64,000 bases of DNA from assembly GCF_003334385.1 (NCBI RefSeq), contig NZ_QOWN01000019.1; one strand, 5' to 3'. The notes below the pieces were generated by a model. The model saw nothing but the letters and a program-made list of their open reading frames with translations. It made no database searches and had not been told where the DNA came from. How positions within the stretch are numbered: position 1 is the first letter of the stretch; every line of letters starts with the position of its first letter. Positions 50,919 through 52,847 of the stretch are shown one piece after another. Both the position numbers and the translations under genes were made by a program. Origin of the DNA: Escherichia coli. Its GTDB lineage: Bacteria; Pseudomonadota; Gammaproteobacteria; Enterobacterales; Enterobacteriaceae.

Positions 50919-51848
50919 TTACGCTGGCATCGCCTCACGCGGGATAATCGCGCCGCGATACTGAATAACGGTACTTGCGGTCAGGTGCCCACGTTTCGCC
51001 GCGTCTTCCGCGCTGCCGCCTGTCAGACGTACCGCCAGATAACCGGCACTGAAAGAGTCGCCAGCTGCGGTGGTATCGATCACTTTTTCTTTCGGCAGTT
51101 TCACCGCCGGAACATCCACTAACCCTTCGCCAGCAATGGACACCAGGCAAGAATCCGCCCCGCGTTTCACCACCACTTCTTTCACGCCCGCGTTATGGGT
51201 GCGCGCAATGACGTCTTCCACCGGCTGTTGACCCCACAGCGCGTCTTCGTCGTCCAGCGTCAGGAAGGCGATATCCGTGCATTCCAGCATTTGTTGGTAC
51301 ACCTGCTGTGTCTCTTCTTTGCTGGCCCACAGGCGCGGACGATAGTTATTGTCGAAAATCACTTTTCCGCCGTTGGCGCGGCATTCGCGCAGCAGGGAAA
51401 GCAGCTTTTCGCGGCTGGTCGGGCTTAAGATCGCCAGGCTAATCCCGCTCAGGTAGAGATAATCGAAATTCGCCAGCTCTTCGCAAATCGCCGCAGACTG
51501 CTCACTCTCCAGCCAGAATTTGGCGGCGGCTTCGTTCCGCCAGTAGTAGAACGTACGCTCGCCGGTGCTGTCGGTTTCAATGTAGTAAAGGCCCGGCAGA
51601 CGGTTTTCCATCCGTTGGGTCAGGGAAGTATCAACGTTCTCGCCGTGCCAGGCGTCCAGCATCTGCTGGCTAAAACTGTCCGTTCCCAGCGCCGTTACGT
51701 AATGAACGGTTAATGCCGCAGGATCGACCTGACGGGCGATATAGACGGAAGTGTTCAGGGTATCGCCGCCGAAACCGCGCTTAACGTCCGCGCCTTTCTC
51801 GGAAAGCTCAATCATGCATTCGCCAATCACGGCAATCTTTTTGGACAT
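50919..51848 (-). CDS. kdgK: 2-dehydro-3-deoxygluconokinase (309 aa)
   Basis: Start MSKKIAVIGECMIEL (complement of 51846-51848); PfkB ribokinase-family motifs; track ORF extension to 52196 rejected. Confidence 0.9.
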   Translation of the reverse strand: MSKKIAVIGECMIELSEKGADVKRGFGGDTLNTSVYIARQVDPAALTVHYVTALGTDSFSQQMLDAWHGENVDTSLTQRMENRLPGLYYIETDSTGERTFYYWRNEAAAKFWLESEQSAAICEELANFDYLYLSGISLAILSPTSREKLLSLLRECRANGGKVIFDNNYRPRLWASKEETQQVYQQMLECTDIAFLTLDDEDALWGQQPVEDVIARTHNAGVKEVVVKRGADSCLVSIAGEGLVDVPAVKLPKEKVIDTTAAGDSFSAGYLAVRLTGGSAEDAAKRGHLTASTVIQYRGAIIPREAMPA

Positions 51849-51914
51849 AGTCGTGAACCTGATCTGTAAAAAATTAGCGTTAGTTTGCGCTGTGGTGGTT
51901 TGCTGGTCAACCAT

Positions 51915-51934
51915 ATTAAAACAGTGTTCCATTA
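51915..51934. promoter_or_regulatory. Candidate KdgR operator in the kdgK / pdeH divergent region
   Basis: Near-palindromic ATTAAAACAGTGTTCCATTA ~70 bp upstream of kdgK start, resembling the KdgR half-sites AAAAC / GTTTC as recalled. Confidence 0.35.
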
Positions 51935-52079
51935 TTTTTTTGAGCCAGAACGTATTCCTGAAAGATTCCGTTGTGGAGTGAGGAAATTTACCCCGGCCAG
52001 GCGGTAAAGTTCTGCCCTTACGCGCCGATAATCTTTGTCGAGTCCGGGCAGCATCACTTTTAAACACAGGACATCTTTG

Positions 52080-52847
52080 ATGATAAGGCAGGTTATCCAG
52101 CGAATAAGCAACCCTGAAGCAAGCATCGAGAGCTTGCAGGAACGGCGTTTTTGGTTGCAGTGTGAGCGTGCTTACACCTGGCAGCCGATCTATCAAACAT
52201 GCGGGCGGTTAATGGCCGTGGAGCTATTAACGGTGGTCACGCATCCCTTGAACCCTTCGCAACGCCTGCCGCCGGATCGCTATTTTACTGAAATCACCGT
52301 CAGCCATCGGATGGAGGTTGTGAAAGAGCAGATTGATTTGCTGGCGCAAAAAGCCGACTTCTTTATAGAGCACGGCCTGCTGGCATCGGTCAATATTGAT
52401 GGCCCTACGCTCATCGCCCTGCGTCAGCAACCAAAAATCCTGCGCCAGATTGAGCGTCTTCCCTGGCTGCGTTTCGAACTGGTGGAGCATATCCGTCTGC
52501 CGAAAGATTCAACCTTTGCCTCGATGTGTGAATTTGGCCCGCTGTGGCTGGATGATTTTGGTACCGGGATGGCAAATTTCTCTGCGCTAAGTGAAGTGCG
52601 TTATGACTACATCAAAATCGCGCGAGAACTGTTTGTGATGCTGCGTCAGTCGCCGGAAGGACGCACACTCTTTTCTCAGCTTTTACATCTAATGAATCGC
52701 TATTGTCGCGGGGTGATTGTCGAGGGCGTAGAAACGCCGGAAGAGTGGCGTGATGTTCAGAACTCGCCCGCATTCGCCGCACAAGGCTGGTTTCTTTCAC
52801 GCCCGGCACCGATAGAAACGCTGAATACGGCGGTTCTGGCGCTATAA
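52080..52847 (+). CDS. pdeH: EAL-domain c-di-GMP phosphodiesterase (255 aa)
   Basis: Start MIRQVIQRISNPEASIESLQ at 52080; stand-alone EAL domain. Confidence 0.9.
   Translation: MIRQVIQRISNPEASIESLQERRFWLQCERAYTWQPIYQTCGRLMAVELLTVVTHPLNPSQRLPPDRYFTEITVSHRMEVVKEQIDLLAQKADFFIEHGLLASVNIDGPTLIALRQQPKILRQIERLPWLRFELVEHIRLPKDSTFASMCEFGPLWLDDFGTGMANFSALSEVRYDYIKIARELFVMLRQSPEGRTLFSQLLHLMNRYCRGVIVEGVETPEEWRDVQNSPAFAAQGWFLSRPAPIETLNTAVLAL

Follow-up and report, generated by a model that had tools for sequence, protein, structure and literature searches.

A probable KdgR operator upstream of kdgK in the kdgK–pdeH divergent spacer of Escherichia coli and other Enterobacteriaceae

The window, a stretch of 64,000 nucleotides of the Escherichia coli chromosome, carries kdgK and pdeH in divergent orientation. 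The kdgK coding sequence (50919–51848, minus strand; start codon 51846–51848), the gene under regulation, encodes the 309-residue 2-dehydro-3-deoxygluconokinase, and pdeH (yhjH; 52080–52847, plus strand; ATG at 52080) encodes an EAL-domain c-di-GMP phosphodiesterase of 255 residues. The spacer between them (51849–52079, 231 bp) is base-for-base that of K-12 MG1655 at 3679188–3679418, where the MG1655 position is 3731267 minus the window position. Many E. coli genomes match a 1-kb piece around the element described below at 100% identity and have both kdgK and pdeH annotated there. The mechanical list of open reading frames gives kdgK as a 425-residue minus-strand frame (50919–52196) that runs through the spacer to a TTG inside pdeH; the true start is the ATG at 51848, which yields the 309-residue protein and is the same as in MG1655.

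The initial annotation had placed a near-palindrome, ATTAAAACAGTGTTCCATTA, between the two divergent starts. Its location (exactly 51915–51934) and its sequence hold, but its 20-nt register does not, with only 1 of 10 base pairs complementary. The symmetric unit is instead the 21-mer at 51914–51934 (TATTAAAACAGTGTTCCATTA; TAATGGAACACTGTTTTAATA in the kdgK sense), an imperfect palindrome centred on G51924, 76 bp upstream of the kdgK ATG, in which 7 of 10 pairs are complementary. It is composed of a left half-site, TATTAAAAC (51914–51922), a central triplet (51923–51925), and a right half-site, GTTCCATTA (51926–51934). A pairing of 7 out of 10 is also reached by 278 other 21-mers in the window, and an automated repeat search of the window did not return the element; palindromicity was therefore dropped as evidence. 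That this box is not a random sequence follows from its match to a known motif (25.2 bits, against 9.9 bits for the runner-up) and from its conservation across genera, rather than from its symmetry.

The KdgR consensus is AAATGAAACAnTGTTTCATTT (Rodionov et al. 2000/2004, as cited in PMC5559549), and the kdgK box matches 15 of its 20 specified positions. Both arms depart from the consensus, with GGAAC in place of GAAAC and GTTTTAAT in place of GTTTCATT, and these deviations are lineage-wide. To score the match, we built a symmetrised weight matrix from six MG1655 boxes (kdgT, two from kduI, tabA, ygjV, and eda), none of them from kdgK. The kdgK box scores 25.2 bits on this matrix, whose training boxes come from the upstream regions of reported KdgR or PlaR targets and were themselves picked by consensus search. 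The score ranks first among the approximately 64,000 positions of the window, is not attained when the window is Markov-shuffled (0 of 30 shuffles), and falls inside the range of the training sites (20–30 bits), far from the poor score that would have spoken against KdgR. Taken separately, the left and right half-sites score 12.9 and 11.5 bits on the half-site matrix. The scan finds one full KdgR site and one pair of half-sites in the spacer, both of them the kdgK box; a tandem second box at a distance of 18–22 bp was sought in the spacer and none was found.

Conservation of the box was examined in a scan with one genome per species, which covered 80 Enterobacteriaceae kdgK loci at 86–100% protein identity. 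When the 450 bp upstream of kdgK are scored with the matrix, the orthologous box comes out on top at all 80 loci, its centre 74–84 bp before the ATG. In an alignment of 73 distinct kdgK–pdeH spacers, with identity measured against the window base, the left and right half-sites have mean identities of 0.99 and 0.95 and the whole spacer (51849–52079) one of 0.66. The central triplet, at 0.26, is unconstrained and takes 11 different forms. It is polymorphic even within Escherichia (loci L007, L008, L010, and L011), where the arms are fixed: in the kdgK sense it reads ACT in K-12, AGC in strain E69, GGC in SCPM-O-B-8794, and AGT in E. whittamii. A dimeric helix-turn-helix protein is expected to leave just such a footprint, with an invariant arm on either side of a free, 3-nt centre of symmetry. 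At the level of sequence, the box has the motif, the location near a gene of the KDG pathway, and the orthologous conservation of a KdgR box. Within E. coli, 5422 of 5426 complete genomes contain an 81-bp module surrounding the box, which carries no annotation in RefSeq.

The box is also found where kdgK has a different neighbor. Seven complete loci lack pdeH, five of them from Klebsiella (L056, L062, L064, L078, and L082; positions ~2300–2500), and retain the box and its flanks. The Klebsiella loci lack the σ28 promoter of pdeH as well, in line with their non-flagellate state. At one of them, L056, which was read directly, the box is kept together with the A-tract and the hexamers TTGACC and CACACT described below; kdgK there faces a long divergent gene (~700 residues) in place of pdeH, probably one of the yhjG/AsmA family. 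The A-tract is a conserved block directly upstream of the box (51935–51945, minus strand; GCTCAAAAAAA in the kdgK sense) with an identity of 0.85–1.0, and it too is retained in Klebsiella. It might represent a flank of the KdgR footprint or a UP-like element.

Published expression data connect kdgK with kdgR. The gene has been called a known KdgR target, and its mRNA is increased in an E. coli kdgR mutant as judged by Northern blot (PMC6958661). An i-modulon analysis of laboratory-evolved E. coli that had lost kdgR showed over-expression of kdgK, kdgT, kduI, and kduD (PMC6892915). In Salmonella, whose locus (L029) carries the same box, Northern blots detect no kdgK mRNA in M9 minimal medium; KDG induces it strongly, and deletion of kdgR makes its expression constitutive (PMC4784465). 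Shimada et al., citing Rodionov et al. 2000/2004, list kduI, kduD, and eda as carrying a KdgR box (PMC6958661). Our literature search for an EMSA, footprint, or ChIP of KdgR on the E. coli kdgK box found none; contact of KdgR with exactly these bases is what we infer from the motif and its conservation. The proposal in the initial annotation that the element is a candidate operator, possibly for KdgR, is borne out by the matrix score, by the dimer-type footprint at every locus of the scan, and by the published kdgR-dependent, KDG-inducible expression of kdgK. We consider it very likely that KdgR, a repressor of the IclR family, controls kdgK by binding the box at 51914–51934 as its operator.

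The conserved sequence downstream of the box contains a candidate σ70 promoter for kdgK. A putative –35 hexamer, TTGACC (51905–51910, minus strand), lies 3 bp downstream of the box and has an identity of 0.998 in the 73 spacers; a putative –10 hexamer, CAAACT (51882–51887, minus strand), follows 17 bp after it and reads CACACT in most genera. The A at position 2 and the T at position 6 of this –10 candidate are kept across the spacers, and the 17 nt between the two hexamers are nearly fixed in length and variable in sequence over the first ~12 nt. TTGACC-N17-CA(A/C)ACT appears to be the best σ70 candidate for kdgK. It predicts a transcription start near 51875, which would place the box at about –39 to –59, adjoining the –35 element. 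A σ70 consensus scan of the spacer gave 0 matches, the kdgK promoter candidates falling below threshold, and it is therefore conservation on which the assignment of the promoter rests. No kdgK start appears among the entries listed in PMC4782308, PMC3415461, PMC7132871, PMC6131387, and bioRxiv 2020.07.18.207399. A by-eye search of the spacer for a CRP site gave nothing convincing.

Two weaker –10-like hexamers, TTTAAT and TAATAT, are situated inside the box. The first is part of an extended –10 sequence, TGtTTTAAT, which was demoted as the main promoter because it has no A at position 2 and its TG is present in only about two-thirds of the genomes; TAATAT has no usable –35. A further conserved block (51882–51895; CACAGCGCAAACT on the minus strand) reaches 5′ of the candidate –10 and contains a CAGCG that is nearly invariant in the 73 spacers. 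This block could be a site for another factor or a discriminator-like element.

The presence of TTTAAT and TAATAT in the box, and the fact that the box occupies the place of a UP element relative to TTGACC-N17-CAAACT, raise the question of whether promoter architecture alone, such as an A/T-rich UP element or hexamers of the –10 type, accounts for its conservation without any repressor site. We regard this explanation as extremely improbable. Conserved symmetric arms around a free 3-nt centre are the signature of a dimeric protein, not of a promoter, and the matrix that gives the 25-bit match was trained on other genes under KdgR control. In addition, kdgR-dependent regulation requires a site in cis, for which the box is the sole candidate in the spacer.

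A second question is which protein acts at the box. PlaR (YiaJ) alone has direct evidence of binding to this spacer, namely a genomic SELEX peak that survives six cycles and a positive gel shift (PMC6958661). The gel-shift probe, named pdeH/kdgK by its authors, was amplified with primers that map to 51861–52087 of the window (PMC6958661). The reported PlaR box, ATnTGAAACnnnGTTCAnTT, resembles the kdgK site and is almost the KdgR box (PMC6958661); by eye, the kdgK box matches ~12 of the 17 specified positions of the PlaR consensus. The possibility that PlaR, rather than KdgR, is the physiologically relevant protein is nonetheless unlikely in our view. The kdgK mRNA is increased in the kdgR mutant, whereas no such increase is listed for kdgK in the plaR mutant (PMC6958661), the PlaR gel shift required 1–5 μM protein, and deletion of kdgR alone makes Salmonella kdgK fully constitutive (PMC4784465). 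The two readings are not exclusive, and binding of both proteins is likely.

Comparison with characterized systems places the box among the KdgR operators. Like the boxes of E. coli and Dickeya dadantii (kdgT, kduI, tabA/yjgK, ygjV, and eda; pel, ogl, and kdgT in Dickeya), it is a 21-bp A/T-rich imperfect palindrome. With the boxes of the KdgR regulon it also shares a GAAAC…GTTTC core, a position upstream of a KDG-pathway gene, derepression in the absence of kdgR, and induction by KDG; it differs from them in the GGAAC and GTTTTAAT deviations of its arms. The number of boxes also varies, with a single one at kdgK, tandem boxes 20–22 bp apart at kdgT and ygjV, and two boxes 67 bp apart at kduI. 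The core and the 3-nt spacer are common to the PlaR box as well (PMC6958661), and the kdgK spacer is both recovered in PlaR genomic SELEX and shifted by PlaR. The PlaR system differs in that its primary target is plaR-yiaK and in that derepression of kdgK in a plaR mutant is not reported (PMC6958661). Among the operators of the IclR family more broadly, such as those of IclR on aceBAK and of AllR (PMC8222616), an A/T-rich palindrome and release of the repressor by a small-molecule effector are shared features, and the kdgK box has its centre 76 bp before the start of the gene (–76), inside the zone of –20 to –80 that is typical of the family (PMC8222616). Unlike these operators, the kdgK box has no detectable tandem second site at 18–22 bp.

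The preferred reading, control of kdgK by KdgR through this box, suggests a simple mechanism. KdgR, as a dimer or as a pair of dimers, would touch the two half-sites (TAATGGAAC and GTTTTAATA in the kdgK sense) across the free 3-nt centre. Because the box abuts the –35 element and overlaps the –10-like hexamers within it, bound KdgR would block RNA polymerase and exclude it from the kdgK promoter, whether the candidate promoter or the in-box hexamers are used. Accumulating 2-keto-3-deoxygluconate (KDG), produced for example from hexuronates or pectin products, would bind KdgR; the KDG-bound repressor would leave the box, and kdgK would be transcribed. The IclR-family paralogue PlaR recognises a very similar box and can bind the same spacer in vitro.

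The pdeH side of the spacer has a promoter of its own, which is independent of the box. A σ28 (FliA) class-3 promoter, TAAAGTTC-N11-GCCGATAA, is located at 52005–52031 on the plus strand. Compared with the class-3 flagellar consensus TAAAGTTT-N11-GCCGATAA, its –10 element is perfect, its –35 element matches at 7 of 8 positions, and its spacer is 11 bp; this likeness is confined to the pdeH side, outside the palindrome. Both σ28 hexamers are 100% conserved in all 73 spacers, with an identity of 0.45 for the sequence between them. Exactly this sequence has been reported as the motif at yhjH in FliA ChIP-seq, where the gene has a peak; without fliA, yhjH RNA drops from 511 to 2 (PMC4183435). This FliA-dependent promoter is sufficient for pdeH, which is transcribed separately from kdgK. 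Two inverted repeats flank or overlap this promoter (52012–52024/52039–52051, 13 nt, 77%; 51983–51992/52003–52012, 10 nt, 90% complementarity). They are probably due to chance, as their bases outside the promoter hexamers are poorly conserved.

RNA ends have been reported at MG1655 3679019(–), within pdeH, and 3680134(–), antisense to kdgK, among those given by Adams et al. (bioRxiv 10.1101/2020.07.18.207399). In window terms these correspond to ~52248 (inside pdeH) and ~51133 (antisense to kdgK). They suggest that the pdeH-sense strand gives rise to read-through or antisense RNA extending across kdgK.

The location of the box within a divergent spacer, and the name that its authors gave to the gel-shift probe, invite the idea of a shared operator, at which KdgR or PlaR would control both genes and couple the sensing of KDG and plant sugars to pdeH, c-di-GMP, and motility. 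A fairly constant distance also separates the box centre from the σ28 –10 element, 105–111 bp in 69 of the 73 spacers, but this spread exceeds half a helical turn and there are outliers at 78 and 117. The end of the box lies 71 bp upstream of the σ28 –35 element, and the predicted pdeH start is ~115 bp distant, a separation too great for steric repression. Conservation within the spacer is lowest (0.45) in the intervening DNA (51946–52004). Almost all yhjH RNA is lost without FliA (PMC4183435); the i-modulon analysis assigns yhjH to the flagellar set, and the set of the kdgR deletion does not contain it (PMC6892915); and pdeH is not named among the PlaR targets by Shimada et al. (PMC6958661). 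Moreover, the box remains with kdgK at the loci that have no pdeH. Neither an abutment of the box to both promoters nor a response of both genes, either of which would mark a shared bidirectional operator, is seen here, and we judge a shared operator to be very unlikely.

Distant PdeH orthologues encoded away from kdgK were also sought. The sequence search returned only relatives of at least 67% identity, and a representative search gave one usable locus (L088). There, an EAL protein of 51% identity (P0122; 3532–4000) is encoded downstream of rnc-era-recO-pdxJ-acpS in an Enterobacterales-like assembly and is a candidate pdeH relative. Upstream of P0122 lies a GCCGATGA element and no KdgR box, the best score being 6.3 bits; as a single case, this absence of the box from a pdeH relative away from kdgK carries little weight against a shared operator.

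The further suggestion of the initial annotation, that the element might also influence pdeH, thus finds no support, given the distant FliA-dependent promoter, the unconserved DNA in between, the retention of the box without pdeH, and the lack of pdeH in the kdgR-deletion set. The operator belongs to kdgK; that it also acts on pdeH is a suggestion without support, though not one that has been refuted. There is at best a slim chance that occupancy by KdgR or PlaR, or the burst of divergent kdgK transcription after release by KDG, modulates the pdeH promoter at a distance of ~115 bp, by a route such as local supercoiling or bending of the DNA. If such cross-talk were real, plant-derived sugar acids would tune c-di-GMP and motility in the Enterobacteriaceae that carry kdgK and pdeH back to back. 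On current evidence, the fixed adjacency of the two genes has no regulatory meaning.

kdgK is a founding member of the kdg regulon, and the kdgK box as a KdgR operator is already known, a long-recognized and ordinary regulatory element. Beyond confirmation, the significance of the present findings is small. What they add is a dimer-type phylogenetic footprint over 80 genomes, a candidate kdgK promoter in TTGACC-N17-CA(A/C)ACT, and the observation that the operator travels with kdgK and not with pdeH.
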